A stretch of DNA of 62,284 bases, counting the filler. It is 9 parts of 9 records of this genome, joined end to end, with 100 filler letters (N's around TTAATTAATTAA, not from the genome) between each part and the next. Parts side by side here need not be neighbours in the genome. Positions count along the whole stretch, not along the records: positions 19,391 to 24,827 come from SRR31156797_37304; 8 more parts are not named here. One strand, given 5' to 3'. The notes below the pieces were generated by a model. It did no database searches, was not told where the DNA came from, and saw only the letters and a list, made by a program, of their open reading frames with translations. A program made the position numbers and the translations under genes. This document shows positions 1,340 through 50,179 of this stretch, in pieces. The first letter of the stretch is position 1; every line of letters begins with the position of its first letter.

Positions 1340-1711
1340 ATGAGTCATTCAATTCAGTTTAACTTTGTCGCCAGTGTCAGTGGTGGACCAACCATTTCGG
1401 GAAGCTGTGACATGGGTGCAGCGGTCTACAGCATGATGAATGTGACCGTCCCTGCCGGAGGATCAGCAGAGCTGGACACATCACCGAGTGCGAAAGGCAA
1501 GCTGCTGATCGTCACGGCAGACAGTTATGAGGGGATCACCTATACCGTTACGGGGGGAGTTACCGCCACACTCGATGCCCCCCATCTTTTGCTGGGCTCC
1601 GGTGCAGTAGGATTGCTCAACAGCGGAAATCCCGTTGAAACGATCACATTCAACAGTACCGCAACCGAGGACGTTGACATTACTCTCATGCTCGGTCGTG
1701 ATGCATCCTAA
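1340..1711 (+). CDS. Hypothetical beta-rich protein, first gene of the contractile injection system operon
   Basis: 123-aa ORF with strong SD (AGGAGG), co-oriented directly upstream of the sheath gene. Confidence 0.8.
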   Translation: MSHSIQFNFVASVSGGPTISGSCDMGAAVYSMMNVTVPAGGSAELDTSPSAKGKLLIVTADSYEGITYTVTGGVTATLDAPHLLLGSGAVGLLNSGNPVETITFNSTATEDVDITLMLGRDAS

Positions 1712-1778
1712 AAGATCGCCGCGCCTCATTCTTTTTCTGATGAGTGTCCGGTAATGTGAAACTCAAAGGAGAATTTAA

Positions 1779-3317
1779 ATGCCAGTTACCACTACTTATC
1801 CCGGGGTTTATATCGAAGAGCTTCCCAGTGGTGTACGTACAATTGTCGGCGTAGCCACTTCGATAACAGCGTTTATTGGCCGGGCCAAAAAAGGACCGGT
1901 ACATCATCCGGTCAGAATAGCCAGTTTTGGTGATTATGACCGGGTTTTTGGTGGTTTATGGAGTGAAAGTTCCATGAGCCATGCAGTTCGCCATTTTTTT
2001 CAAAACGGAGGAACCAACGCCATTATTGTTCGTGTGGAAAACGGCAGTTTGACGGCAAACGTCACGACCGGAGGATTCCAGCTCGAAACAGCGTGGAAAA
2101 ATCTCGATAATCCGGGGGATTGGGGGAACTACCTATCCGCCGAGGTTGACACCGATGCCGCCAGCAGTGAGGTATTTAACCTGATTTTACGCCTCCACGA
2201 AGAAACGAACACCACAAGCACCGTTGTGGCAACGGAGACCTTCCGGAATCTTTCAACCGACGCAACCTCCCCACGCTTTATCGTCACCGTTCTCCAGCAG
2301 GAATCATACCTGGCCCGCATCACCGATGGAACGCCCTTACCCGGAACCTTGATTGATGACGGACCGGCGATGTTTACCGGCGGCGACGAGGGTGTCGCCA
2401 TTACCGATACAGAAATTCAGGGTGACCCGTCAAACAAAGAGGGATTGTACGCCCTTGAAGATGCAGATCTGTTCAACCTGCTCTACATCCCTCCACTTTC
2501 AGCAGGCACGCTACCGGATCCAACGGCCACCCTCGGCCCTGCGTTGGACTATTGCCAGAAGCGACGGGCGATGCTCCTCCTGGACCCCCCGACAACTTGG
2601 GTAGACATCGCTTCCGCGGAAAGCGGCGTCAGCGCCCTGATGAGCAGTGTCGGCGGTGCAGGGCTGGCCATTAACAGCATGGCCTATTTCCCGAATCTGC
2701 GGATGCCGGATCCACTGCAAGAAAACCGTTTGACCAGCTTTCCACCGGGCGGGGCCGTGGCCGGGCTGATTGCCCGCACGGACGCCAATCGAGGCATTTG
2801 GAAAGCCCCTGCCGGGATCGAGGCCTCGTTTGTCGGCGTGGGTGAAATGTCGATTCGAATGACGGATCCGGAAAACGGCCGGCTCAACCCTCTGGGCCTC
2901 AACTGTTTGCGGACGATACCACCCTATGGCCACATTTCCTGGGGGGCGCGCACCCTGGCCGGCGATGACCGCATCGCCTCGGAGTGGAAGTACATCCCGG
3001 TCCGACGCACCGCGCTCTACATCGAAGAGAGCCTTTATCGAGGTTTGCACTGGGTCGTTTTCGAACCCAACGATGAATCGCTGTGGGCCCAAATACGCCT
3101 CAACGTTGGGGCGTTTATGAAAAACATGTTCCGCCAGGGCGCATTTCAAGGCACAGCGGCCCGTGAGGCCTATCTCGTCAAATGTGACACCGAAACCAAT
3201 CCGCAAGATCAAATTGATCGGGGTATTGTCACTGTTTACGTCGGCTTCGCGCCACTTAAACCGGCCGAGTTCGTCATTATTCAAATTCAGCAGCTCGCTG
3301 GTCAGCTGGAGGTTTAG
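1779..3317 (+). CDS. Contractile tail sheath protein (eCIS/Afp/PVC-type)
   Basis: N-terminal TYPGVYIEE...TAFIGRAKKGP; C-terminal RGIWKAPAG, WGARTL, WKYIPVRR, WVVFEPN, FAPLKPAEF. Confidence 0.95.
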   Translation: MPVTTTYPGVYIEELPSGVRTIVGVATSITAFIGRAKKGPVHHPVRIASFGDYDRVFGGLWSESSMSHAVRHFFQNGGTNAIIVRVENGSLTANVTTGGFQLETAWKNLDNPGDWGNYLSAEVDTDAASSEVFNLILRLHEETNTTSTVVATETFRNLSTDATSPRFIVTVLQQESYLARITDGTPLPGTLIDDGPAMFTGGDEGVAITDTEIQGDPSNKEGLYALEDADLFNLLYIPPLSAGTLPDPTATLGPALDYCQKRRAMLLLDPPTTWVDIASAESGVSALMSSVGGAGLAINSMAYFPNLRMPDPLQENRLTSFPPGGAVAGLIARTDANRGIWKAPAGIEASFVGVGEMSIRMTDPENGRLNPLGLNCLRTIPPYGHISWGARTLAGDDRIASEWKYIPVRRTALYIEESLYRGLHWVVFEPNDESLWAQIRLNVGAFMKNMFRQGAFQGTAAREAYLVKCDTETNPQDQIDRGIVTVYVGFAPLKPAEFVIIQIQQLAGQLEV

Positions 3318-19390: not shown

Positions 19391-21595
19391 AGGAATCCGG
19401 CCTTTGAAGCTGTGGAGCGAGCTGGTTCTGAAGTTATTCGCCAAGGTGAAAAAGCGGCCCTGAGATTCAAGCAATTTCAAAAGGAACGGGATGATCTTTA
19501 TCTCTTAAAGCTCGAGGGGGAGTTTTCCGACCTGGAACGGGAATTTCATACAAATGAAAATACCCTCGAGGGAGAAAACGCCCAGGGATCCCATGACCGC
19601 GGACTGGCGCAGTACGACCAGTGGAACTCCGAATTTGCCGAACGGCTGCAGAACGATTATCAGCGGATGGCTTGGGCTCCGCGCATCGAACGGCGGCGCC
19701 AGGCCGGGCTTTCCATGCGCGCCCAGTGGGAAGCGACCCAACACCAGCAATTGAAGGTTGAGCGCCAGAAGGGCCTATTTACAAGGCTTGGTATGGAATC
19801 CAAGTTATACGCCAATAACCCGGCCCGCTTGAAACAATTGATAACAGATTACAACGAGGATGTCGCAAACCTACGGGCCGGGCACGATAACACGGCCCTA
19901 AAGCAGGCGGCGGAAAATTTAGTATGGTCCACGGCCATACAGGCCAGGATAAACGGAAAGCAGTATGCATCGGCGGAAGAACTACTGCAAACGATCAGCA
20001 ACCAGGGCCGGATCCCGGCTGATTTAGAGGCTAAATTAAGGCGTAGTTTAAAGGTTGCTTCTTCCGACGCTCAAATTGATCAAGCGTATATGAGTTTCGA
20101 CGGCCAGGACCCACAACTCGCAGCGATGGATGTTATGGAAAATCCATCAAAATATGGGCTCAATGCCAAAGAAGCTCATCAGGTCGCAAGTATGTTGATG
20201 GCCAAGGATTCAATGCAGCAAGCCCTGGAAAAGGAAACTTTAAAACTGAACATACAAAAGGATTTAAATTCTTACAGCGCCGCGATGCTCAAGAATGATT
20301 ATGTATCCGCCATGAAAACCATTGCGAATTCGAAATCTATTAAACCTTTAGACAAATTGAAATTAATCGATGATGCCCAAAAAGGCATGGTTACGACCAA
20401 GCCGCAAGATTGGCAGATTGCACTGGCCATGATCATGGAAGGAAAGGTTACAGATTTAAATCAATTGATCAGGTTTGGCGTTCGGGCGGATAAATGGCAG
20501 GAAGCCCAAAAAGAGATAGAGGCGTACAAAGAACGGAACGATTTTGGCGATAATATATTCGAGAACCGTGTACAGTCTTTTGAGCTGAAATATAAGGATA
20601 AGAGAGAAGCAGCGATAAAGGGCGCCAAGTTCCGGACGTTGCTAAATCAAATAGCTAAGCTGGAAAAGATTACTAATCATAGCGACCCTAAAATGCATCA
20701 ACTGGCCGACATAGTTGAAGGCATGATGGAAGAAAAAGGGAGTTGGTTCAATATCTTTTCCGATAAAACTTCCGAAGCAGATATGGCATTAGAAGAGTTG
20801 GTTCTAAAGGGAAAACTCGAACGCTACAAATATTATAACCTCGCTATTCCGGAAGCAACCAAAGAAGAAGTCCGCCAAGTATACGAAATTCTCTGGAAAC
20901 GGCAAACGCCTTTTGACGTTGAATCGTATAGCCGGGCTGCTTTAAAGGCGGTCCGATCAGGCAAAACACTGGATGAAATAATAGATAGTGTTGTTCTGCC
21001 AGAGGGTTTTGAACACTTAGCAGAAAAATACGAAAAATTGGAAGTTGCAGATGCAATAACCTTTTTAAACGAAATGGGCGTTGAGGTTACTCCTAAATCT
21101 GTTGATGAAACGCTAGAACAGGCAAGAGCTACGATGGCGCCGGCCAAGGCTCCGGAAGCAGTGCCGGTGGAATATCCGGATCCGCTTATAACCTATTTTA
21201 CAAGCTCAGGACTAACTCGTGGCGAAAAGGAAATTGCTGATGAAAACGTACTCGAGGGGATACCTGAAGAGGCAATCATAGAAATCAGGGATTTGCTGAT
21301 TGCCGATAACACTAAGCCTACTCCCTTTAAAATCAGGAAGATGTGGGAAGCACAACCCGAGTTGCACCGAAAATACATTAAAAAATCATATTTAATTCCT
21401 CCGGATGCGGGACTCAGGCCCTTAATTGATACTAAGGATATGGTGGATGCTGTAAAAGCAAAAAGCATTGCCGAATTGACACGACGCGGCTTTTACGCCC
21501 TGGGGGGAGTGGGCGAAGCCATATCGGAAAAATTTATAGATCCCGCCAGTGAAGCAATCAAGCATAGCAGGGAGCTTTTAAAAGATGAGGAATAA
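19391..21595 (+). CDS. Large helical phage protein, probable internal virion/ejection protein (5'-truncated)
   Basis: More than 727 aa, frame open to the contig start, charged and helix-like, overlapping the next large virion-type gene; no enzymatic motif recognised. Confidence 0.6.
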   Translation, partial: RNPAFEAVERAGSEVIRQGEKAALRFKQFQKERDDLYLLKLEGEFSDLEREFHTNENTLEGENAQGSHDRGLAQYDQWNSEFAERLQNDYQRMAWAPRIERRRQAGLSMRAQWEATQHQQLKVERQKGLFTRLGMESKLYANNPARLKQLITDYNEDVANLRAGHDNTALKQAAENLVWSTAIQARINGKQYASAEELLQTISNQGRIPADLEAKLRRSLKVASSDAQIDQAYMSFDGQDPQLAAMDVMENPSKYGLNAKEAHQVASMLMAKDSMQQALEKETLKLNIQKDLNSYSAAMLKNDYVSAMKTIANSKSIKPLDKLKLIDDAQKGMVTTKPQDWQIALAMIMEGKVTDLNQLIRFGVRADKWQEAQKEIEAYKERNDFGDNIFENRVQSFELKYKDKREAAIKGAKFRTLLNQIAKLEKITNHSDPKMHQLADIVEGMMEEKGSWFNIFSDKTSEADMALEELVLKGKLERYKYYNLAIPEATKEEVRQVYEILWKRQTPFDVESYSRAALKAVRSGKTLDEIIDSVVLPEGFEHLAEKYEKLEVADAITFLNEMGVEVTPKSVDETLEQARATMAPAKAPEAVPVEYPDPLITYFTSSGLTRGEKEIADENVLEGIPEEAIIEIRDLLIADNTKPTPFKIRKMWEAQPELHRKYIKKSYLIPPDAGLRPLIDTKDMVDAVKAKSIAELTRRGFYALGGVGEAISEKFIDPASEAIKHSRELLKDEE

Positions 21596-24500
21596 AACCG
21601 GTTGGGACACCGCCAGGCTGGAAGAAGATACGCCGGGGCAGGCATGGGACCCGCTGAGGCTGGATGAAGCTGAAAAAGAGGCCTTACAAGAATCGTATGA
21701 GCGGAGCCAGGGCGTTAATCCTGATGATGCGGCCGCGGCTATGCGGTTTTCGCCGAACTCGCCATATACGCCGGAAGCAATTGTTGAATCCCCGGAATTG
21801 ATGAAAAAGGCGAAAAATCCGCCTCCTGATTTGAAAAAGGTGCGAAAAGAAGCGCCCACGCTGGCTGAATGGCTGGCGAACCCTCAGAAGTTTGTTGTGG
21901 CACAGGATGATATCGGAGCCCTTATAAAAGTTGAACGCGGGATCCAAAAAGCGCAGAAATGGTTGCGGAAGCGGACGGCGATTGAAGATGCTGTTTTTGG
22001 GGCAATGGGAGTGGATACTGACAGCCGGCTCTATCACTTGGCTATGTTTCCACTCAGAATGGATCTTGGAGAGAGACTCGATAAATCGTTAAGGAGCGGC
22101 GTTTACTCGGCTGCAGGGGGCATGGCTTCGGGGGCGAAGTGGCTAATCGGCGGGGCGCGGCGATCCAGGGCTCTCGATCTTTTATCACGAGAACTGCACA
22201 ACGCGGCGAATTTTACGGCGCCGCCGGATCCCGATCTGTTGGACAAAGCCGCACAGGCCGGCGGTTCCATGGCCACCTTTTTTATCCCCGGGTTGGGAAT
22301 TGCCAAAGGTGCGAGTTGGGCGGCCAGTGTAACGCCCAGGTTGGCCAGATGGCTCGGGGCCAGCTCCATGACCATCTTGGAATCCATGGCTGAAGCCGGA
22401 GGAGTTTACGAGGAAACACTGCAAGGCGGGGGCAGCGAGAAGCTTGCAAACGAGCGTGCGACGAAAACATTTTGGATGAATGTTCCGTTGCTTGCGATCA
22501 CTAATAAACTGGGAATTTTCGGTGAAACGGGCGGCGATCTGTGGCGGCTTGGTATTTCTGGCCTTTTGGAGGGCGGGCAGGAAATAGGCCAGGAAAAGAT
22601 ATCTTCCGGCGTAATGGGCCGGGAGATGACCTTGAGAGATTATCTTGAGGTTGGCGGCTTAGGAATGGTTTTCGGCGGTGGGGCCGGTGTGGCTGCGCGG
22701 AGAGCGCTTCCGGGGGCCAGTGCTGATGATCAGCCGCAAACAACGCCAAGGGCCAAGGCCGCGGCTCAGGCTGTGCTTAATGAGGCTGAAAAGGGGCTGA
22801 AGGATTCGGCCCTGGCTGATCGATCACCGGAAGATCTGAAAGAATTCATGAATGATTTGGGGGCGGCATATAATGTGCCGGAAAAAGTATATATCGAACC
22901 CGAAAACCTGACGACGCTGTTTCAGGTTGGGGGCTCTTTTGCCGATAGCGTGAAAACCGATGAGCAACAACAACAGGTTGAGGATCCCGTTGACGCTGCG
23001 GAAATTTTAGAGGATCTGGGCATAACCGAAGAAACTTATTATCAAGCCCTGGAAACGGGCGCGCCGATTGGAATTGAATTCGGCCAGCTTGGCCATGTAA
23101 TCAAAAAGCCGACCTGGAAGAAAATAAAACCGCATTTATCGTTTGATCCGGCATCAGACCTGGTGGAAGCGGAAAAGGGAATTCAGCAGGCTTTCCGCGA
23201 GAATCGCGGTTTGACTATCGAGCAGGAAGAACGAATCAGAAAAGATATAAAGGATTCCGGCCGCCCTGACCAAGACGCGGACATTGCCATAGGTTTGCTT
23301 AATGCCCGGGCGCGGGTTTGGGCAGGCACCACAGGACGGGATCCGGGCCAATATCTTAATGAACAGTGGAAACTGAGGTTTGAAAAGGGGGATGACCGCC
23401 TAATTGAAGAATTGATTGCGGAGAGCAATAAAAAGCATCCTCAGTTGAAAAAAACTAAAAGACTGTTCTCCGTTAAAGGTTGGGGCCCTGAATTTACTCA
23501 ATTCAGCGGTAAGCCTCATGAGGCAATCAGGCACCTTATGGATGTGCAGGACGGCTACGTTCCGGCCGCCATATCCCGCCCGGATATCGGGGATATAGAT
23601 TTTGTTTGGGGCCGCGGGGGACCAAACGGTTATGGGCTGGCTCATATCCTGGATGAGCGCGGAATACAGAAAGGTTTAGGAATACTTCTTCGGTTGCCTG
23701 ATCTCATCACCAAGGGAGCATTAGTACACAGGCCTAAATACCCTGGAAGGGCTTATATCGCAAATCCCGATACGGAAATTATTATTAGGTTGGATTGGGA
23801 TAAGAAAAAGCGGAATTGGGTATTAACAACTTATTTTAAGTACAATTACGGATCCCCCGCTTCGACCGGTCGTCTGACAAATAGTCGAACTGTCGGTGAT
23901 GGACAGCACCTTCCTCCATCACACGAGGGATCTAATAAAAGTTTAAACGAAACAACGGATGATGTCAACGGGCCTGTTGAGCTTCAAGGCACAATAAATT
24001 TTAAAAACATTCGGGATGTTATCATTTCTTTTTTTCAGGCAGCGGATATCACCACGGCGCCGCATGAAATTTTCCATCTTTTTCAGGCTGATCTTGAAAC
24101 TTTGGGAAAACCTGGTTATGGCCAGGATCCCGATGTCGGACGGGATTATGAGATTGCCTGCAAATTTGTAGGGGCGAAAGTCGGAGAGACCTGGACACGC
24201 AAGCAACATGAAAAATTTGCTGAAGAGGGCGTAAAATACTTGATAAACGGCCAGGCTCCGACTGCGGAACTCAGGCCGCTATTTACTCGCATGAAAGATT
24301 GGTTTTTGGATGTTTATGATTCTGTTGTGCACGGGACAGCCAAGATCGAAGTAAGCCCGGAAATGCGCGGCGTGTTTGATCGGTTGCTGGCAACCAAGGA
24401 AGAATTGGCGGACGCTCAAGAGGCGTTGGAACTGGTAAGCGCGTTTGGCGATCAGCCGGTGCGACCGCAAGATGTGCCTCCGGATGATTGGAAAGAATAT

Positions 24501-24827
24501 GAAAAAGCCGCGGGTAACGCATCTTCCGCTGCGGAAGAAGCAGCCCAGAAAAAAAGAATAAAAGAACTGGATGATCAGCGCCGGCAATGGAAAAAGGAAG
24601 GCCGGGCAGAGGCGAACGCCGATCTGAGAATTGAGCGCGTTACGGATATCGTTAAAAGGGGCGGGATCCGGAGAGGCAGCCTGTTTGAGTATGATGCTGA
24701 AACCGTGACTCAGTTGAGCAAACTCAGGCCCGGATTGATCACCAAGAAAGGCAAATTATCTCTTGATGAGCTGGCTGAAGAATACGGAATGAGCAGCGAT
24801 GAGCTTTTCGAGGCTTTAATGGAAACC
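21585..24827 (+). CDS. Phage large polyvalent protein: Gly-rich hydrophobic N-region, PBECR1-type (barnase/EndoU/colicin E5-D/RelE fold) RNase domain, HExxH zincin-like domain (3'-truncated)
   Basis: GDIDFVWG...GYGLAHI...NWVLTTY (~23480-23845) and AADITTAPHEIFH...HEKFAE...GQAPT...LF..MKDWFLDVY (~24000-24330). Confidence 0.8.
23851..23932 (-). ncRNA. Candidate 82-nt three-way-junction RNA antisense to the linker after the RNase domain
   Basis: 9-bp closing stem GAUCCCUCG/CGGGGGAUC, 8-bp GUGAUGGA/UCCAUCAC and 7-bp UUCGACU/GGUCGAA. Both wobble pairs are G-U only on the minus strand. The RNA starts at the predicted TSS of the adjacent promoter. Confidence 0.6.
23940..23968 (-). promoter_or_regulatory. 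Intragenic antisense sigma-70 promoter
   Basis: TTGACA (23968-23963), 17-nt spacer, TAAACT (23945-23940). Confidence 0.7.
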
Positions 24828-24927
24828 NNNNNNNNNNNNNNNNNNNNNNNNNNNNNNNNNNNNNNNNNNNNTTAATTAATTAANNNNNNNNNNNNNNNNN
24901 NNNNNNNNNNNNNNNNNNNNNNNNNNN
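24828..24927. other. Artificial contig linker
   Basis: N44-TTAATTAATTAA-N44. Confidence 0.99.
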
Positions 24928-24957
24928 TATCAGTATCAGTATCAGTATCAGTATCAG
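24928..24957. repeat. Hexanucleotide tandem repeat (TATCAG)x5+ inside clpV, encoding (DT)n
   Basis: Five perfect copies running into the contig end. Confidence 0.9.
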
Positions 24958-26485
24958 ATGATATTTGCTGCTCTCTGCTTTCCAACAACTCAGTACGTAA
25001 ACGAATGATTTCCTCAATATGGGTTTTCTGCTCTAACCAACGCTCAGTGAGTTCAGACTTTTCAGCTTCATCCTTACGCTCTTTTTCCAGCAGCTCTTCT
25101 AGCCACTGCAAATCGACTTCATGCCCTAAAAATTGAGCTCTTTCTATCATCTCGATCTCAGCTTTTCTCTGATGATGAGTTGACTCAAGTGACGCAATTC
25201 GTTTTGGCGGTGTTGAGATATTTATTGCGATACGCGCACACGCCGTATCCAGCACATCGATAGCTTTATCAGGCAGTTGACTCCCTGGAATGTATCGAGC
25301 AGAAAGCTCTGCAGCAGCAGTTAAAGCATCATCGGTAATAATGACCTGGTGCGCTTTTTCATACACAGGATACAGTCCACGAAGAATGTCTACCGCTTGC
25401 TCAATACTCGGTTCATTGAGCTTCACCAATTGGAAACGACGCGCTAGCGCTGGATCTTTTTCAAAATACTTTTTGTATTCTTTCCATGTCGTTGCCGCAA
25501 CCGTGCTTAACTCACCGCGCGCTAACGCAGGTTTAAGCAGATTGGCCGCATCACTCCCACCTTCTTGGTTACCTGCCCCAATTAGCGTATGTGCTTCATC
25601 AATAAATAAGATTATGGGTTTTGGTGACTGTTTGATCGCTTCAATGACGCTGTTTAAACGTTTTTCAAACTCGCCTTTTACCGAAGCTCCAGCTTGAAGC
25701 AAGCCTAAATCGAGAGACCATAACTCAACGTTTTTTAACTGCGCAGGGACAGCACCAGACTCAACGCGTAGTGCAAGCCCTTCAAACATGGCGCTCTTAC
25801 CAACACCTGCATCACCCACAACTATCGGATTATTTTTTCTCCGACGACATAGAATGTCGATCATTAAGTTCAGTTCTTCATCACGACAAAGAACAGGGTC
25901 TAAAGCCCCATCTCGCGCTTGAGCTGAGACATGGGTACAGTACTTTTCAAGTACAGACTCATTTTTAGGGCTTTCTACAACCGAAGACTTGCTTGCTGAA
26001 GGGGCAACTTTCGTTTCTGAAGAGTTTTCAACAATGGCAGAGAAATTTTTCTTCAACCCTTCTCGGTTAACGTCTGAAAATATTTTGGCTAACGATTCAG
26101 AGAGGTATCGAGTTGGGTTAATCAAAGCGGCCAATAATATCGCTCCTGATCTCAGCTCTGCTTGTTCCAGTTCTGTGGTTGAAAGCAACCATGCTTCTTG
26201 CAGTAGCTCCACCAGCAAAGGCGAAAATGCTGGGTAAGTATCAAGCGATTGTTCATATGGGTATGACTTAGCAATGGCTTGCTTTAACGCCTCTGGCTCA
26301 ATGTTCGCAAGCTTAAGAACCACTCGAATATCCGATAATGGATTATCCAGTAGTACTTCTAAATAGTGCTGCAAGGTCACTTCTGAGTGTTGACGTTCAA
26401 TACAAAGAGAAGCGGCTTGCTCAAGCGCAAGCTTGCTCTGATCATTTAATTTAGATATGAGTGTGGGCAATTCAATACGGATCAC
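24928..26485 (-). CDS. tssH: T6SS AAA+ ATPase ClpV/TssH (3'-truncated)
   Basis: RRRKNNPIVVGDAGVGKS, LFIDEAH, KPALARGEL and LPDKAIDVLDTAC; T6SS context. Confidence 0.95.
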
Positions 26486-27290: not shown

Positions 27291-28625
27291 TTAATCCCTA
27301 ATTGCCCAAAACTGAATATCTAGATCATCAAATGCAGCCGCAATATGGAATGCGAATCCAGTTGATTTACGAAGCATCGCCCAAGAAGAGCTGGTTTTAT
27401 CAAGTTGGTAGTAAATATATCCGGCATGGTACGGTAAATGACGCGGTGCTACCGGAAGTGGCAGTAAAGTAATCCCCGGAAGCTGGAGAGAAATAAGCTC
27501 TCGAATCTTCTCAACCGAAGAGACTTTGGTCTGCTGAACAAACTGACGACGCAGCTCATCGAGAGGAAGTCGCGCTTTAACCGAAATAATAAATTCAGCG
27601 CTATCTATCAGTTGTAGATCGTGAATAGCCGCAACATGCAAGCCATATTTACGTTTTTCGATCTGGATCGATACAGCTTTCGGCTCGATAACCACGCTCA
27701 AGCTTTGACGTAAATGACGAATGAGCGGGCCAAAAGACTCACTCGGCATTTCATGGTTATAGCTTGGCAACTTCGGCGGTAAACGACTTTCATCGGTAAA
27801 GGTCGACAACTCACCACTGATCAAAGAAAGGGATTCGAATAGACGTTCTGGGTGCAAACTTGATAACTGAGCTAAATGTTGCATCTGAGGTTGTAAACGG
27901 TTCAGAGTTTGCAACAACATAAAATCGGCAACATCGGCAACAGAGCCTTGCGATGGCACGCTAATACGTTGGGCGATATTTTTTGCGCGCTCTTTCAACA
28001 GTCCCGACATCTCATTGATAAAACGATGTAAAGCCTCATTTCTTGCAACATTGTAATGACAAGGGATGAAATCTGGGTCAAGCACCACACTGCCATCTGG
28101 GCGTTTTTCCAAGATCCGAGCAATAGCAATCGACGCATACGCACTGCGATCATCTTTTTGCAGCATGAGCTTAATCTTTGCTGGAGACACATCGATGTTA
28201 GTGGTGTCACCTTGTACGGTATGTACATCAACCACTTCTAATGCGCGGCTTGCATAACGTCCTGTACCATGTTCCTCTGGCCAACTGACTTCCATCAGAG
28301 CTTCACTTTTGAGCGGTACCGCTAAATAGACGATCTGATTCGCCAGCGATGAGTCAACGATTTCTAATGCTTCTGGTATTAAATCCTCTTGTGGGATACG
28401 GAATGTTAAACCGTCCGGCATAACACCAACCGCTCGGTCGATAGCAATTCGTCCAAACGACAAATACTCCGGGTTAAGAGATAGCTCTGATACCCCATAT
28501 AAATAGTGACCCACTGACCGAATACGTTCGTCAATATGGTACTCAAAGTGACGTTGTTGTTGCTGGAAATGTTGAGGCTTGATAAACAAACCTTCTTTCC
28601 AAATCACACGATTTCGTGCATACAT
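27291..28625 (-). CDS. tssK: T6SS baseplate protein TssK
   Basis: VIWKEGLFIKPQHFQQ...LPVAPRHLPYHAG...FWAIR. Confidence 0.96.
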   Translation of the reverse strand: MYARNRVIWKEGLFIKPQHFQQQQRHFEYHIDERIRSVGHYLYGVSELSLNPEYLSFGRIAIDRAVGVMPDGLTFRIPQEDLIPEALEIVDSSLANQIVYLAVPLKSEALMEVSWPEEHGTGRYASRALEVVDVHTVQGDTTNIDVSPAKIKLMLQKDDRSAYASIAIARILEKRPDGSVVLDPDFIPCHYNVARNEALHRFINEMSGLLKERAKNIAQRISVPSQGSVADVADFMLLQTLNRLQPQMQHLAQLSSLHPERLFESLSLISGELSTFTDESRLPPKLPSYNHEMPSESFGPLIRHLRQSLSVVIEPKAVSIQIEKRKYGLHVAAIHDLQLIDSAEFIISVKARLPLDELRRQFVQQTKVSSVEKIRELISLQLPGITLLPLPVAPRHLPYHAGYIYYQLDKTSSSWAMLRKSTGFAFHIAAAFDDLDIQFWAIRD

Positions 28626-28630
28626 TATTT

Positions 28631-29107
28631 CTATTCCACCTTATCCAATTTGACTTCGTAATCTTTAAACAACATTAAAAGGTGATACTCTCTGCCTGAG
28701 TTAAGAACCTTCACTGATTGCTTCCATTCACTGATTTCAGGATCGGAAAAGTGCGCAATAACCCCGATATAGTTCGTGTCTTCATCCACCTTAATTTCAT
28801 TAACAAACTTAAATTGATTGGGTGTCAGCACGTAGTCATAGTTCTTAATGAAATTACTACGTAGTGCTTTCTCGTAGTCCGATTTCAACTGGTCATAACC
28901 TGCTGACATAAACATTGAATCGTCTTTTAGCTCAATAACTTGGACTTCAACCGGAGATGCCTCTCCCCATACATTTGGATTGACTCGGGTATCCGCGACT
29001 AAACTAAATGTCACTTTTGTTGGCTGCTCTGCGGGAGGCAGTTCGTCATTTGAACTACAGGCCACCAGCAGCAATACACTGACATGCAATAACCACTTCT
29101 GAATCAC
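28631..29107 (-). CDS. tssJ: T6SS lipoprotein TssJ
   Basis: Lipobox LVAC; VNPN...ASPVEVQVIELKDDS. Confidence 0.93.
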   Translation of the reverse strand: MIQKWLLHVSVLLLVACSSNDELPPAEQPTKVTFSLVADTRVNPNVWGEASPVEVQVIELKDDSMFMSAGYDQLKSDYEKALRSNFIKNYDYVLTPNQFKFVNEIKVDEDTNYIGVIAHFSDPEISEWKQSVKVLNSGREYHLLMLFKDYEVKLDKVE

Positions 29108-29109
29108 AG

Positions 29110-30564
29110 TTATAACTCCTGTTGTTTCTCACGAATTTTTCCGTCATACGATTGTTCAAAAATCTCCCAAAAGAGTTTTTCAAAACCACTTTGACGATCC
29201 GAAATCAGTTCTTGGTAATAACTACAATACATTTCCCAAGCCCATGCCTGCTCTGACTGAGCTTCTATATCGGTATTACGCTTGTAGCTATAGAATCGAC
29301 GCATTAACACCTGAGGCGAAAATGCTTTTAATATTTGCCTTAGAGCTTCAGACGTCGCGTGTTGGACGGCTTCATTATGATCGCAGACGCTTTTTAGGCT
29401 TTCTGAAATCGCGGCTGGAGCAGACAAGTGAACAAGACTTTTATCCTTGTCATACATGGTACCAATGGTTTGCTCGTAACTGAGTCCAAGCCTTAACGGG
29501 TTATCTTCAATAGGTTGAAGCTTACGATTCATCGAACCACTTCTACTGGTATTGACCTGTTGATTTATCTCTAGTATTCCTTTGATACAAGCCTGTAACG
29601 ACAAACCAAACTCTTGCGATAGAAAGTGCATTCGCTTCATATCATGACCATCGCTGATATGAGCACCTAAACCTTCTAGTATTGGTCCCGTAAGGAGGTG
29701 GCTAGACCTACCGTCTTCGCTTTCCTGCAGTGATAACGCTTTAGTGACTTCATCTTCGACGAAGCTCAGTTCATTCTCATCCATTTCTGGGCCCTTAAGT
29801 GCATCATTGTTAATGTCAAAACTAGGTGATTGAAAATGCTTGTAATGGGGCATGTCCTTACCTGTTTCTGTTGACGTTTGGTGAACAGCCTTCTGAACAC
29901 TGCTCGCAGTCTTTGTTAGATAAATCGATGAAGATATCTCAGAGCCTCGATCAAAATTTTCAGCACATCCTTCTGCATTTCTGGCGAAGCCATCTTGAGA
30001 TAGTAAGTAACTACTTACGCTTGCATCTTCTTTTGTTCTATCCGGCTCCGAAATAAGGTCAGCATCGGTATCACAACTGATCACATCATCGAGCATGGCG
30101 ACGGGGTCTGAAGAAACTGGCTCAGGTTCAATACCAATAACACCACCTTCAAACTCAATGTTTAAGAGAGTGTTATGGGAGAAACTCAGCAATCCATCCA
30201 GTTGTGAATCGGAGTTTTCACTAATGTATGAATGATCCAATATTGCTCTGATCCGATAGCGTCCAATCCGGATTTCATCGTTGTGCTGTAATCGAGCTAA
30301 CCTTCCCTTACCAATTGGCATTGAAGCGCTATTGATGTATGTGAAGCCCGACAGGTCTCTGAGACAGACATAGTTGTCAATTTCAACCAGTTCACAATGA
30401 CGCTCTCCAATGCTCATTTGGTGGTCTTTCAACCACCAATCAGCGTAACGACTTGAACCAATCACTGCGCCTGAATGATTGCAGGTAAACTGAGGCGTTA
30501 CTCCAGCGTCCAACTGTTCAGAATTAACAACCAACAAGGTGAGCGGCTTCTTTATTTGCCCCAT
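29110..30564 (-). CDS. tagH: T6SS FHA-domain protein TagH/Fha
   Basis: N-terminal FHA-like region (IGSS...WWL.D...ERHC...IRIGRY), C-terminal QPIEDNPLRL; position in the cluster. Confidence 0.88.
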   Translation of the reverse strand: MGQIKKPLTLLVVNSEQLDAGVTPQFTCNHSGAVIGSSRYADWWLKDHQMSIGERHCELVEIDNYVCLRDLSGFTYINSASMPIGKGRLARLQHNDEIRIGRYRIRAILDHSYISENSDSQLDGLLSFSHNTLLNIEFEGGVIGIEPEPVSSDPVAMLDDVISCDTDADLISEPDRTKEDASVSSYLLSQDGFARNAEGCAENFDRGSEISSSIYLTKTASSVQKAVHQTSTETGKDMPHYKHFQSPSFDINNDALKGPEMDENELSFVEDEVTKALSLQESEDGRSSHLLTGPILEGLGAHISDGHDMKRMHFLSQEFGLSLQACIKGILEINQQVNTSRSGSMNRKLQPIEDNPLRLGLSYEQTIGTMYDKDKSLVHLSAPAAISESLKSVCDHNEAVQHATSEALRQILKAFSPQVLMRRFYSYKRNTDIEAQSEQAWAWEMYCSYYQELISDRQSGFEKLFWEIFEQSYDGKIREKQQEL

Positions 30565-30566
30565 CG

Positions 30567-31580
30567 TTATTGCCTCACTTGAATCAGGACTTGTTTCTCC
30601 CTATCTTTACAGCCAAGAAAAGACGTCCAACCGAGCGCAGTGCCATGACTGCGGCTAATTGAAAAATCTTGATATTCACCGTCATCAAGAACCAGTTCCA
30701 AATCAAATGCCAATTGGTCTCGCAACATAAGTTCCACCAATTTACACAGTGACTTAAACTCTTTTCCTAAAGGTAAAAAATCGGTAAATCGCTCTCGCGA
30801 CAACTGCTCAATCCGAATCGCAAACTTACCTTTACAATCCATGACGGACTCACCAATAACCGTATCGACGCCCAAACAGGAACTGTTCATTCCCAGAGAC
30901 AAACGTTGAGACTCGTCAATTTTCACCTTGCGTTTAACCCATTGACGAATATGAACGTTCGGCAAATCAAAGCAGTGTGCCAGTACCCCGGCAATCACTT
31001 GCGGAGAGCGATTTCGTCCCGCCAGCATCCCTGAGTAGGCCAGCATCTTGCACCAATTGATCGGTGTTTCACCTCGTAGCTCTACGTCGCCTAATCCAAC
31101 CAAAGCAAACAGTTGTGAAGAGAACTTATCTTGAGCATCCGGTTGGAAACGCACGTAGTAACGATATTTACGCCAAATCCGATAGATCAAATTGATCAAT
31201 CGGTTGTTAAAAAAATTAAAGAAGGGTTGCTTTAACCCATCAAACTCTTCATTGACTAACTGTTCTGTAATAAAACCCGGCAGTGGCGATTGAGCACCCG
31301 ACAATCCAAAGAAATTGGTCTGTAAGGTCATTCTGTTATTTTCGAGCAACTCAAAAGAAACCACATCCGCTCTGGCGAAACCGAGACTGGTATTTGCGCC
31401 AAAAACAAGCTGACAATACCGCTCCCATTCATCAGAATCGGCATTGAGCATTCTCGATTTCTGTATAAGTTCGACCAGCTGATAGAAGTTATAAGTGTGC
31501 GCTGTGGTAGACAGTTCCGGATGTAATACCGCCACACTTTCTTCTATATCAACGGCTGCATTCCGACCTGGCTGTCCCAT
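30567..31580 (-). CDS. tssG: T6SS baseplate protein TssG
   Basis: YNFYQLVEL, FFGLSGAQSPLP, FFNNRL and LGWTSFLG. Confidence 0.95.
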   Translation of the reverse strand: MGQPGRNAAVDIEESVAVLHPELSTTAHTYNFYQLVELIQKSRMLNADSDEWERYCQLVFGANTSLGFARADVVSFELLENNRMTLQTNFFGLSGAQSPLPGFITEQLVNEEFDGLKQPFFNFFNNRLINLIYRIWRKYRYYVRFQPDAQDKFSSQLFALVGLGDVELRGETPINWCKMLAYSGMLAGRNRSPQVIAGVLAHCFDLPNVHIRQWVKRKVKIDESQRLSLGMNSSCLGVDTVIGESVMDCKGKFAIRIEQLSRERFTDFLPLGKEFKSLCKLVELMLRDQLAFDLELVLDDGEYQDFSISRSHGTALGWTSFLGCKDREKQVLIQVRQ

Positions 31581-33313
31581 GTGTATTTCTCTTTATTAGT
31601 CACGTTAATAAGTTCCAGCTGATGAAATGAGTTAATGCTGGCGTACAATGCAAAGAAGTGGTTTAAAACGGTTCCAAATAAAAACAGTTCTCCCTCCGAT
31701 CCAAATCCATCTTGATCAATATAGAGAGAAGAACACAAACCTCTTACCGGAAGGCCTTGTACTAACTTATCAATGGGGCGAGATTCAACTTTGACAATCG
31801 CTTGTAAACGACGCTTAGCGATCCTTTCAGCCTGACGATCGTATAAGGCACGAAAATCGTAAGCCCTTAATACAGAACTCAAGGCATCTTTAGACAGCAA
31901 AGACAAATAGTTCAGAGACAAATTTGAAATCAGAGTCCATAGCAAACTACCATCGAGAATCGGCCTCAACGGCTGAGAAGGGACGGTGATGTTTTCAAAC
32001 GTTGCGAAGTTGGGGGAAGTATCTGTCGCTTGACAAATATCACCGATACCAAGATCTAAAGGCAGTAAGCGATTGGAACAGGTCAGCTTAATCGATATGG
32101 TTTCATCCACTCCGATCGATTGAGTCTCGTCACTCCGCATAAACGAAATGAAAGATTCAAAGCCATCACCACGAATACTGTCTTTGAGACGAGTACGGTA
32201 ATAAAGAGCTTTACGATCACGAACCCTTTCAATCTCATGCTGAAAACTTTCAAATGCTGAATAGACACGTTTTTCATTACGCCCATTATGCGAGGTGTCC
32301 GTTCTATCCTTCCAACCTTCAACTCGGTCAACACTAAACACTTCATAGTGTTTTGGATAACGCGTAGAAGGTATCAATGGGTATTCTGGCTTGCGACCAT
32401 GCAAATCTATGGGTTCAGCATCATGCTCAAACAAATTGATAACGGGCGTGCAGTAAAGTTGAAAGCTGTCGCGTCCAATGTGCATGTTTTGTGGCAGAGT
32501 TTTCGTAAACTTAATCGCCAACACAAACTCACGCTGCTCGGCATCAAAAATGACTCTGTCAAAACCTTTCACATCAAAAAAGTGGAAAGCTTCGGGAAAC
32601 GAAAGATACTCTTGTAATACGCGGTAACCTTCATAAACATTGGTTGGATAAGGCAAAAGAGCTTGCTCTTTTTCAAATCCAACATTGGCAAAAGCGCCCT
32701 TAGCCAGTCTTTGCTCTTTGCCGTCTATCTCAACACTCAAACGATCAAGATAGTGATTTAGCCACAAGTACAATGTTTGCGAAGTGTAATTATCACCACC
32801 TAAGTAGAAACGTAAGCTATCAAGCTGTACATCTTTAATTGACACGTTTTTGTCAAACCTCATCGTCAACTTCAACAAAGAGGTTTCACGAGTATGTTCA
32901 ACACGTACATCAACGCAGTTCACTGGATATACATTCACATCTCGACAAGTTCTGAAATGACATCTCGTCCCCATGACAGCGTTGCTATCTAATTGAGTTC
33001 CACGTTTAATCAGCGACTTCTCACTCAATCCCTTATTAGGCTTGAATGAGACAATACTCATGCTCGGAACGGGGCGTAAATAATTTGGCCAAAGCATATT
33101 GATCATCGAGTGAGTCAGTTCTGGAAACTCATCGTCGACCTTTTCTCTTAAGCGAGCGGTGAGGAACGCAAAACCCTCGAGCAAGCGTTCCACATCAGGA
33201 TCTACCGTACGTCCATGTAAAAAACGGGAAAGTTGAGGATGAATTTCACAAAACTCTTTACCCTGTTCTTTAAGAAAAGAGAGCTCTTCTCTAAAGTATT
33301 TATTTTGGGTCAT
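31544..33313 (-). CDS. tssF: T6SS baseplate protein TssF
   Basis: DPDVERLLEGFAFL, LYCTPVINLF, WTLISNLSLNYLSL and YASINSF. Confidence 0.96.
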   Translation of the reverse strand: MTQNKYFREELSFLKEQGKEFCEIHPQLSRFLHGRTVDPDVERLLEGFAFLTARLREKVDDEFPELTHSMINMLWPNYLRPVPSMSIVSFKPNKGLSEKSLIKRGTQLDSNAVMGTRCHFRTCRDVNVYPVNCVDVRVEHTRETSLLKLTMRFDKNVSIKDVQLDSLRFYLGGDNYTSQTLYLWLNHYLDRLSVEIDGKEQRLAKGAFANVGFEKEQALLPYPTNVYEGYRVLQEYLSFPEAFHFFDVKGFDRVIFDAEQREFVLAIKFTKTLPQNMHIGRDSFQLYCTPVINLFEHDAEPIDLHGRKPEYPLIPSTRYPKHYEVFSVDRVEGWKDRTDTSHNGRNEKRVYSAFESFQHEIERVRDRKALYYRTRLKDSIRGDGFESFISFMRSDETQSIGVDETISIKLTCSNRLLPLDLGIGDICQATDTSPNFATFENITVPSQPLRPILDGSLLWTLISNLSLNYLSLLSKDALSSVLRAYDFRALYDRQAERIAKRRLQAIVKVESRPIDKLVQGLPVRGLCSSLYIDQDGFGSEGELFLFGTVLNHFFALYASINSFHQLELINVTNKEKYTWDSQVGMQPLI

Positions 33314-48819: not shown

Positions 48820-50172
48820 ATGTGGTCCGCGCCTGTTGACATACCGGGCTTAAATATACAAGTAACCGTATTGCAGTTTACTATCCTGGTTGGATTTATC
48901 TCGCTGATAATAGGTTATTTATTGGCCATGGCCTTCTTACGTCGCCCCAAAATCGATCCGGAACTGGAAGCGGCCAAGGGCAAGGAAAGAGCCACCAGCA
49001 ACGTGGCTTTTATGAAAGGGATAAATTATATCCTTTCCGAAAAGCATGACCAGGCAATCGAAGAGTTAACCCGAGCGGTAAGCGTGGATACGGAAACAGT
49101 GGAAACATACGTGGCCTTGGGCAACCTGTTCCGCCGCAACGGTGAGATCGACCGGGCCATCCGAATTCGGCAGAGTATTATTCTGAGGCCGAACATAGAT
49201 GAAAAAGCTTTGCTGCAGGCCAAATATGATTTGGGCCTTGATTATAAGAGGGGCGGATTTTACGAGAGGGCCTTGCAGACTTTTGAAGAAGTGACCACGG
49301 CGGCCCCGGGCATGATCGACGCCCACCGTCAATTGGTGCAGATTTACGAGGAGACCAGGGATTGGGACAAGGCGGCGCAGTCCGCGGAAAAAATCGGCAG
49401 AATCACCGGGGAGCGCCCGCTGAACGTATTGGCCCACTACCAGGTTGAAAGGGGCAAGGATCTTTTTGAGCAGGGTCTTGGCGCGCAAGCCAAAAATGCC
49501 TACAAAAAAGCCATATCAATGCACCCGGGGTGCGTTGACGCGTACCTGCACATGGGCGATTTGCTGTTACATGAAAGAAAGGCGAAAAAGGCCCTGGCCA
49601 TTTGGCGCAAGCTTATCGATGTGGCTCCGGACATGACTTTCCTGGTTTTCGGAAGGTTGGCCCGGCTTATGGCCGTGATTAGGGATTTACGCCCGGTCGA
49701 AGCGTTTTTAAAAGAGTGCGCTTCCGTGGGGTCCAATCCTCTCGCCCACCTGACCCTGGCCCGGCTTTTGGCAGAACAGGGCAAGGCCGACCAGGCCATT
49801 GAAGAACTGAACAAAGCCCTTGCCCTGGATGATGTTTTTATGGAAGCCAGAAAAGAACTGGGGCTGCTGCTTCTTTCCATGGGACGCAACGAAGAAGCAT
49901 TGGAAGCTTACAGGGAAATGCTGGACAAGATATCAGGGAGGGAAGCATCTTTTCAATGTGAAAGTTGCGGTTTTGAATCCAATGCATTAAGGTGGCGCTG
50001 TCCGCAGTGTCTCAATTGGGACACGGTTTCATTGAAAAAGCAGCTTCCCCGGCTTTTGGCCCCCGGCCCGGAGCCTTATCCTGTTAAACAGCCCCAAACG
50101 GTTGAAGAGCCGTCCGGGGAAAAAGACCAGCCCCCGCCTGACAAGGAGGTATTGCTTCCGGAGGACGCCTGA
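48820..50172 (+). CDS. lapB: LPS assembly protein LapB-like (TPR + rubredoxin-type CxxC...CxxC)
   Basis: N-terminal TM, ALGNLFRRNGEIDRAIRIRQ, TPRs, and CESCGF...WRCPQCLNW. Confidence 0.85.
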   Translation: MWSAPVDIPGLNIQVTVLQFTILVGFISLIIGYLLAMAFLRRPKIDPELEAAKGKERATSNVAFMKGINYILSEKHDQAIEELTRAVSVDTETVETYVALGNLFRRNGEIDRAIRIRQSIILRPNIDEKALLQAKYDLGLDYKRGGFYERALQTFEEVTTAAPGMIDAHRQLVQIYEETRDWDKAAQSAEKIGRITGERPLNVLAHYQVERGKDLFEQGLGAQAKNAYKKAISMHPGCVDAYLHMGDLLLHERKAKKALAIWRKLIDVAPDMTFLVFGRLARLMAVIRDLRPVEAFLKECASVGSNPLAHLTLARLLAEQGKADQAIEELNKALALDDVFMEARKELGLLLLSMGRNEEALEAYREMLDKISGREASFQCESCGFESNALRWRCPQCLNWDTVSLKKQLPRLLAPGPEPYPVKQPQTVEEPSGEKDQPPPDKEVLLPEDA

Positions 50173-50179
50173 TTTAGAT

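Follow-up and report, generated by a model that had tools for sequence, protein, structure and literature searches.

Do the linker codons that follow the predicted RNase domain of a phage polyvalent protein also carry, on the opposite strand, a gene for a small RNA? The question is raised by a window (the whole stretch of DNA analysed, 62,284 nucleotides) in which a plus-strand gene for such a protein contains a PBECR1 domain, a predicted RNase of the BECR fold, at 23472-23840 (+). The Pfam envelope of the domain covers nt 23568-23840, and conservation in relatives (alignments A1 and A8) begins at 23472. A first-pass annotation had placed a promoter and a structured RNA on the minus strand of the linker and had proposed that promoter, RNA and RNase domain travel together as a cassette through polyvalent proteins. 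Comparison with relatives supports this proposal: the unit occurs in four settings and displays promoter enrichment, covariation and strand asymmetry. On these sequence comparisons, a conserved antisense RNA element is almost certainly linked to PBECR1.

Promoter and RNA Element of the Window Copy

The minus-strand site TTGACA-17-TAAACT reported at 23968-23940 is present exactly as first annotated. Its -35 hexamer TTGACA occupies 23963-23968 (-), is separated by a 17-nt spacer from the -10 hexamer TAAACT at 23940-23945 (-), and lies 134 nt past the domain end, within the interval in which the sites of the relatives are found. The two hexamers together give a 10/12 match, and the site is the best among the 9 detected in the region 21000-26000.

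The predicted small RNA of about 82 nt (23932-23851, minus strand) is antisense to the linker codons GSPASTGRLTNSRTVGDGQHLPPSHEGS and folds into a three-way junction with a minimum free energy of -35.1 kcal/mol (z -2.87; 1/200 shuffles equally good). The plus strand of 23851-23932 folds at -29.1 kcal/mol (z -2.56). The 82-nt junction and its 8-bp and 7-bp hairpins stand as originally drawn, and the closing stem was corrected from 9 to 10 bp. The 5' strand of this stem, P1, covers 23923-23932 (-), its first base being the predicted +1, and the 3' strand covers 23851-23860 (-); the two G-U pairs claimed for the closing stem are real. The P2 hairpin (23896-23922, minus) consists of 8 bp and an 11-nt loop that starts with GGA, likewise in the relatives, and the P3 hairpin (23861-23889, minus) of 7 bp and a 15-nt loop. 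A 27-codon minus-strand open reading frame (ORF) was also noted at 23837-23920, with its AUG inside P2 and no obvious ribosome-binding site; its conservation was not seen in the inspected relatives.

Within the window alone, neither the promoter nor the fold exceeds chance. Promoter-like sites of at least 10/12 number 28 in the window versus 20.3 ± 4.6 in Markov simulations. The GC-adjusted fold of the RNA ranks 30th of 20,253 windows, with 13 minus-strand loci equally good. Folds at least as stable were obtained in 97/2000 cases of synonymous resampling, 23/2000 of synonymous permutation within the region, and 8/2000 of codon-order shuffling, so that the idea of a fold standing out from codon-preserving shuffles was not sustained for the window taken by itself. 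Judged before the comparison with relatives, the two signals would very probably have been put down to chance; the feature is counted as real because of the comparative evidence, not because of the window signals.

Promoter Position in PBECR1 Relatives

The PBECR1 loci came from phage records and from collections of viruses, metagenomes and genomes, and in each locus the domain end was anchored at the residue aligned with the Y of the window motif 'VLTTY'. The discovery set comprised 20 non-redundant loci. The independent set was derived from an IMG/VR scan with a 21-sequence domain alignment, from which 80 of 303 relatives (215 kb in total) were taken, giving 49 new clusters, of which 47 were usable. 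Domain identity to the window reached at most 47% among the first eight loci (scans giving 1, 2 and 5 loci) and 49% later (L033), and none of the relatives was close enough to be aligned directly as DNA. Word-index protein searches with the window protein returned 1 and 3 matches, a tblastn search of plasmids returned none, and PF18809 was present in 2/401 sampled genomes of one phylum. Carriers include Burkholderia phage BcepMigl, Pseudomonas phage Itty13, Agrobacterium phage Atu_ph08, Sinorhizobium phage PBC5 and Bordetella phage BPP-1.

Enrichment of antisense promoters past PBECR1 domains, which the first-pass annotation had named as a check, was observed in both sets. In the discovery set, 14/20 loci have a minus-strand site of at least 9/12 at +105 to +175 from the domain end (expected 0.077, p 6e-12), versus 0 loci on the plus strand of the same interval and a maximum of 3 loci at control offsets. 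In an initial listing by eye, the spacer of the sites was nearly always 17 nt. The independent set, examined over the pre-set interval, yielded a minus-strand site of at least 9/12 in 22/47 loci (expected 0.051, p 1.7e-16) and a site of at least 10/12 in 12/47 versus an expected 0.007; 1 site was found on the plus strand. When the independent sites were binned, +105 to +139 contained 20 sites, +140 to +174 contained 5, and every other bin 0-4; the spacer was 17 nt in 16/25 sites. Of the 19 loci having both signals, 18 show a distance of 2-13 nt from the -10 hexamer to the 5' end of the RNA model match (described below). The window and many of the relatives share hexamers of the sigma-70 type (spacer 16-18 nt) at a conserved position upstream of the RNA.

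Helicobacter and Campylobacter phages are also among the carriers, and extended -10 boxes replace the -35 element in them. The Helicobacter phage loci L015, L018, L022 and L023 have a TGnTAnAAT extended -10 and no -35 about 105-120 nt past the domain end. The lack of a -35 element together with an extended -10 is as expected for Helicobacter promoters. In the same four loci, the P2 hairpin is a palindrome, and the sense strand encodes the conserved peptide KGETLP.

Conservation of the RNA Structure and Its Strand

Single-sequence folds computed from the predicted +1 gave the same three-way junction in most loci, though the sequences are unrelated: the closing stem starts at or a few bases from the predicted +1 and is followed by two hairpins. 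A MAFFT alignment of all RNAs left the stems unaligned, and the first covariance model, R1, was therefore seeded from three sequences, the window and two relatives. Its non-seed matches at the predicted place and strand were L006 (E 4.9e-7), L003 (1.3e-4) and L013 (3.1e-4), with weaker matches in L001, L016, L017 and L004. The second model, R2, was built from nine relatives with the window left out. On the window it scored 49.1 bits (E 1.1e-9) at exactly 23851-23932, the runner-up reaching 14.1 bits. Among the 80 new loci, R2 with default filters gave 20 matches at E ≤ 1, of which 20/20 lay on the minus strand and started 3-40 nt after the domain match; without filters, 12 further on-target matches at E ≤ 0.1 were added. 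Searches of the whole genomes of BcepMigl, Itty13, Atu_ph08 and BPP-1 returned exactly one R2 match each, adjoining PBECR1. No match was returned for the whole genome of PBC5, nor for the genomes behind L002 and L003, where L003's own copy was missed, the prefilter being unreliable for R2.

Covariation of the trailing RNA, which had been named as a check, was found at 24/25 pairs in each of two alignments. In A7 (nine sequences), 94.1% of the cells are paired versus 54.7% in shuffles, none of the 500 shuffles reaches the observed value, and in 24/25 pairs both partners have changed; when the 3' partners are shifted by 1-3 columns, pairing falls to 35-48%. In A9, which contains independent loci (15 distinct rows), 90.6% of the cells are paired versus 57.8%, and 24/25 pairs again covary.

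The strand was assessed from the same alignments and from a model-free test. G-U cells number 46 versus 6 A-C cells. The 82-nt block 3' of the domain is the top GC-adjusted minus-strand fold of its locus in 28/68 loci, against an expected 3.3, and on the plus strand it is the top fold in 6 loci. The minus strand is the more stable one in 56/68 target blocks, with a mean difference of -4.5 kcal/mol, compared with 47% of 1471 control blocks. The 46 to 6 ratio of G-U to A-C cells and the greater stability of the minus strand suggest that one strand is transcribed. On this comparative evidence, the structure is conserved by compensatory changes and is strand-specific, which defines a structured RNA family.

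Unpaired positions are conserved at several spots, namely G-G-U at the inner end of P1, GGA/GAG at the entry to the P2 loop, and a GUC-rich P3 loop. The loop nucleotides are partly conserved while the stems vary freely, also in the non-coding copy of L004. A purine-rich, Shine-Dalgarno-like stretch of the GGAG/GGAGG type was noted atop P2 in most members (window 23912-23918, minus). It resembles the GGAG target of the BECR-fold phage RNase RegB, which we take only as a lead to the PBECR1 substrate.

Genomic Contexts and Anatomy of the Family

The anatomy of the family was compiled for 70 non-redundant loci, the window included. In 59/70 loci, at least 60 further codons of the ORF follow the domain and the RNA is inside coding sequence; in 9/70, the ORF ends at most 20 codons from the domain end. 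A model match at E ≤ 0.1 is present in 34/70 loci (the E-values coming from searches of different sizes) and a promoter-like site of at least 9/12 in 37/70; at least one of the two signals occurs in 52/70 and both in 19/70.

The only constant neighbour of the RNA is PBECR1. The solo PBECR1 genes of L004 and L006 each have the RNA behind them in an intergenic gap, with a scaffold gene coming next. L001 contains a portal-PBECR1 fusion, then the RNA in non-coding DNA, and then MuF. Between the solo PBECR1 gene of L004 or L006 and the structural gene that comes next there is no immunity ORF. For the solo loci, a conserved small ORF on the plus strand was considered and rejected, its place and frame not being common to them. 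Proteins with tandem PBECR1 domains (L056 and L091) have their own RNA copy behind each domain, and the apparent off-target matches L056:1038-1117 and L091:2185-2267 are each located behind another PBECR1 domain of the same protein. The copies lie at 1038-1117 and 1551-1630 in L056 and at 1559-1637 and 2185-2267 in L091. Near-identity of the two copies in L056 suggests that the entire cassette was recently duplicated in tandem.

In 19/34 matches, the RNA is followed by 9 nt with at least 5 T, as against 9.1% of control positions. P1 together with this U-rich tail resembles an intrinsic stop in many relatives, as far as can be predicted. Where the copy is coding, the T-run falls on conserved E/K codons at the end of the domain. 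Some loci have an extra small hairpin, which converts the junction into a four-way one.

Several individual loci deserve mention. Some portal-PBECR1 loci (L010 and L030) have a strong antisense promoter of 10-11/12, yet no R2 match; in L010 (about 1840-1935, minus) and in L030 (downstream of the portal-PBECR1 gene), two or more hairpins were found together with a canonical terminator made of a GC-stem and a U-run. In L002, a second R2 match (2735-2813, minus; 26.7 bits, E 3.3e-4) is located upstream of the recognised PBECR1 and 30 nt past an ORF at 1824-2705 that has no Pfam match; it may be the RNA of a divergent domain or a false match. In L019 (PBC5, NC_003324.1), PBECR1 and the RNA lie at 1490-3120, in a feature-free stretch between two coding sequences named 'DarB-like antirestriction'.

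Proposed Function and Alternative Explanations

The explanation we favour starts from what the comparison shows, namely that the linker of about 45 codons past PBECR1 is a predicted small RNA gene when read from the other strand: a promoter of the sigma-70 type is followed, 7-8 nt past the -10 hexamer, by the start of an RNA about 80 nt long and made up of P1, P2 and P3. Each copy of the domain, whether it stands alone, ends a portal protein or lies inside a giant polyvalent protein, has one copy of the RNA behind it. In the proposed function, host RNA polymerase would make the RNA in the lysogen or producer cell, and the RNA would keep the packaged, injectable RNase harmless to that cell, most probably by binding PBECR1 as a structured pseudo-substrate in a type III-like manner, pairing with the mRNA being less likely. 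The whole reading, a linked antisense RNA gene that acts as the cognate neutraliser of the predicted RNase, is given nearly an even chance. The broader formulation is more tentative and has rather less than an even chance: PBECR1 and its trailing antisense RNA would form a toxin-immunity cassette, with the immunity RNA opposite linker codons, that is shuffled in-frame through portal, MuF and polyvalent proteins of many lineages.

Because the orientation is antisense, a promoter and a stop fit inside the ORF without ending the mRNA of the protein; the constant antisense arrangement would be explained by this embedding, and an antisense mechanism would not be needed to account for it. A direct-binding neutraliser is favoured because the RNA accompanies the RNase domain rather than the remainder of the protein, because neither the RNase codons nor any start region is covered by it, because a specific three-dimensional design and loop nucleotides are kept, and because it sits where BECR toxins normally have their immunity gene.

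The orientation can also be taken at face value. As a cis-antisense regulator of the type I or lambda OOP kind, the RNA would pair with late mRNA 3' of the RNase part and silence leaky or mistimed expression by cleavage, decay or ribosome block, without binding the protein. It always lies exactly opposite its would-be target mRNA and convergent with the domain, stem-loops with exposed loops are generally typical of antisense RNAs that start by loop-loop contacts, and a host-type promoter would make expression independent of the phage late programme. What makes this regulator rather unlikely is that the pairing site in a polyvalent gene is kilobases away from the start codon and would hit the whole protein, yet there is one RNA per RNase domain; that the RNA ends at the domain boundary and leaves RNase codons and ribosome-binding sites uncovered; and that a simple antisense RNA needs no conserved three-way junction, 24/25 covarying pairs or conserved loops. 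The strict domain linkage and the conserved tertiary-type architecture would also suit a working partner of PBECR1 (a cofactor, guide, scaffold or packaged companion) or a decoy against host defence, neither being a neutraliser, and the main text of PMC5512222 proposes RNA binding for inactive PBECR domains, with host RNA-based defences as possible targets. This role is improbable: it has no specific support, and a sigma-70-type promoter directed against the late operon would be an unobvious route to co-expression.

Explanations that dispense with an RNA fare worse. The signals could be by-products of a conserved peptide (a processing site or a fused immunity peptide), of a DNA hairpin or of a recombination site, and there are weak peptide patterns in coding copies, G-x-x-[LIV]-P in the window and L007 and KGETLPLNS in Helicobacter phages, as well as small plus-strand ORFs overlapping the RNA region in L004 and L006. 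The element, though, is also present past the ORF stop in L001, L004 and L006, no plus-strand ORF is common in place or frame, the compensatory changes preserve base pairs and alter amino acids, the G-U excess and minus-strand stability given above point to one transcribed strand, and promoter and U-rich tail are both on the RNA strand; a protein or DNA feature is accordingly very improbable. A chance meeting of promoter-like hexamers and a stable fold in a GC-richer linker would agree with the ordinary rank of both signals within the window alone, but the same arrangement, distance and strand occur in relatives with 27-49% identical domains (p 1e-11 to 1e-16), and the independent set agrees, which leaves chance next to no probability. 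Peptide-only, DNA-only and chance explanations are thus largely excluded.

A number of points weigh against the favoured explanation. Coverage is partial, with a model match in about half of the loci (34/70), a promoter in 37/70 and neither in 18/70, and the RNAs of L010 and L030 are shaped differently. The shuffle statistics are inflated because the covariation alignments had been fitted to the model and because the loci are related by descent, and the loop conservation in coding copies could partly reflect peptide constraints. No clear terminator was found 3' of the window RNA copy, where the U-rich tail is absent. P1 of the window forms with a probability of 0.96-1.0 in transcripts 93-113 nt long, which falls to about 0.5-0.6 at 133-233 nt and to 0.02 at 333 nt; the window junction loses to alternative folds once read-through extends a transcript beyond about 130 nt. 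Promoter and RNA ends are predicted ones, and the toxicity of PBECR1 and its binding by the RNA are proposals. An antisense mechanism would account for the strict cis-antisense position just as well.

Of the predicted RNases that phages package in virions for injection, PBECR domains are among the commonest. For the question of how producer cells tolerate the injected PBECR RNases, an antisense RNA gene in the linker is a concrete candidate answer. On this account, a 'featureless' linker of a giant phage protein can hold a functional gene on the other strand, one that would be overlooked by gene callers and by RNA-motif searches limited to intergenic DNA. The arrangement also offers a simple design principle, in that only the antisense orientation lets a promoter and a terminator sit in an ORF without ending its mRNA. 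If correct, the proposal would describe an RNA-based immunity to a phage effector delivered by the virion, the first of its kind, and a systematic case in which coding sequence harbours a non-coding RNA gene.

Window, Contig and Host ORF

The window consists of nine contig pieces with N44-TTAATTAATTAA-N44 between them, and 16 N-runs are distributed over 5067-54720 (e.g., at 24828-24927). The GC content across the joined pieces ranges from about 0.3 up to 0.7. Genes for archaeal-type PCNA and the primase large subunit were found together on one contig at 17288-19093, and bacterial genes for type VI secretion (TssF, VasE and FHA) and MutS on other contigs, within 27291-33313 and 50102-52801. The record behind the window is either a mixed bin or a co-assembly, so the neighbouring contigs do not tell the host of the phage contig.

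The phage contig (19391-24827) contains two ORFs, both on the plus strand. The upstream one, 19412-21595 (+), encodes 727 aa and overlaps the start of the polyvalent gene by 11 nt; Pfam and PHROG searches of it gave no match. The polyvalent phage protein ORF, 21585-24827 (+), encodes at least 1081 aa and is cut by the contig end, the spacer starting at 24828. Pfam assigned LPD22 to its residues 36-123 (E 1.1e-10) and PBECR1 to residues 662-752 (E 1.4e-8, 35.6 bits versus a cut-off of 27.6). The next conserved module, 23988-24794 (+), starts directly past the promoter-bearing linker and was recognised by phrog_9880 at residues 802-1070 and by alignment with P0003. The ORF has the make-up of a PBECR1-bearing polyvalent phage protein as described by Iyer et al. 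2017, being multidomain, with an LPD-type module and PBECR1 over the Pfam cut-off. Relatives are annotated as 'DarB-like' or occur in portal or MuF contexts. The nearest full-coverage relative, P0003, is 38% identical, and its linker is similar in length and unrelated in sequence.

Comparison with Known Systems

Searches against known RNAs were made for the window copy and the relatives. Rfam 15 gave no match in 23851-23932 at E ≤ 10 and none at E ≤ 1 at the RNA of 20 relative loci, the sole match being that of an unrelated miRNA model elsewhere in L008; ARAGORN found 0 tRNA genes in the window. These results leave the RNA without a known family and remove the tRNA likeness that the first-pass annotation had attached to it. 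The motif UUCGACU, taken there for a T-loop heptamer, is base-paired and forms the 5' strand of P3, outside the loop. Mimicry of tRNA was accordingly rejected. Like tRNA-like RNAs and other RNAs of Rfam, the PBECR1 RNA is about 80 nt long and its ends pair in a closing stem; unlike them, it has three helices, not four. Judged by its sequences, the PBECR1-linked RNA is a new RNA family, absent from Rfam.

The literature was searched for a precedent. The main text of PMC5512222, the only paper found that names PBECR1, mentions no antisense, noncoding or small RNA, and it describes no immunity protein for PBECR domains, supplementary files aside. No literature linking jhp1044 with antisense was found, and nothing related was found on BECR and antisense RNA, the available part of PMC11980606 included.

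Colicin E5/D, polymorphic toxins and MuF toxins resemble the PBECR1 loci in having the neutraliser directly downstream of the BECR nuclease and inheriting both as a cassette, a layout described in the available text of PMC5576092 and PMC5512222. Their neutralisers are immunity proteins encoded on the same strand, whereas at PBECR1 loci an RNA gene holds that position and no such ORF is present.

Among known antisense RNAs, several arrangements are similar in part. The type I toxin-antitoxin (TA) pairs txpA/RatA and bsrG/SR4 have convergent antisense RNAs that overlap at the 3' end. The OOP RNA of lambda is a phage antisense RNA of about 77 nt that has its own promoter and terminator and is convergent with, and overlaps the 3' end of, a phage gene; it does not lie in-frame in a coding linker, is linked to no nuclease domain, and is not known to have a conserved three-way junction. 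Type I systems with nuclease toxins (SymE/SymR and RalR/RalA) likewise have a cis-encoded antisense RNA with its own promoter beside the toxin gene, some of them being prophage-borne, and RalR/RalA is cited as such a pair in the available text of PMC5576092. The PBECR1 RNA shares with type I RNAs its complementarity to the mRNA, directly 3' of the predicted-RNase domain. Type I RNAs target a dedicated small toxin mRNA, whereas the PBECR1 RNA lies within a multi-kilobase ORF, away from the RNase codons and the start region, and has a conserved three-way junction; the type I toxin is typically a small membrane peptide, and here the putative toxin is a predicted RNase domain in a protein of at least 1081 aa.

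A functional parallel to the proposed role is offered by the type III TA systems (ToxIN, CptIN and TenpIN), in which a small structured RNA and an endoribonuclease are genetically linked, also on phages and mobile elements, and the RNA neutralises the enzyme by direct binding, according to the available part of PMC11980606. Their antitoxin is a tandem-repeat array that lies upstream on the same strand and is processed by the toxin; the layout found here is a different one, the PBECR1 RNA being a single copy, downstream, on the opposite strand and with its own promoter. PBECR1 also has the BECR fold and is not ToxN-like, and neutralisation by its RNA is a proposal of the present analysis. Viewed in this way, the proposed element is one that would act like a toxin-linked antitoxin RNA outside the type III layout, and it is unlike type I RNAs in its target and in its embedding within an ORF.

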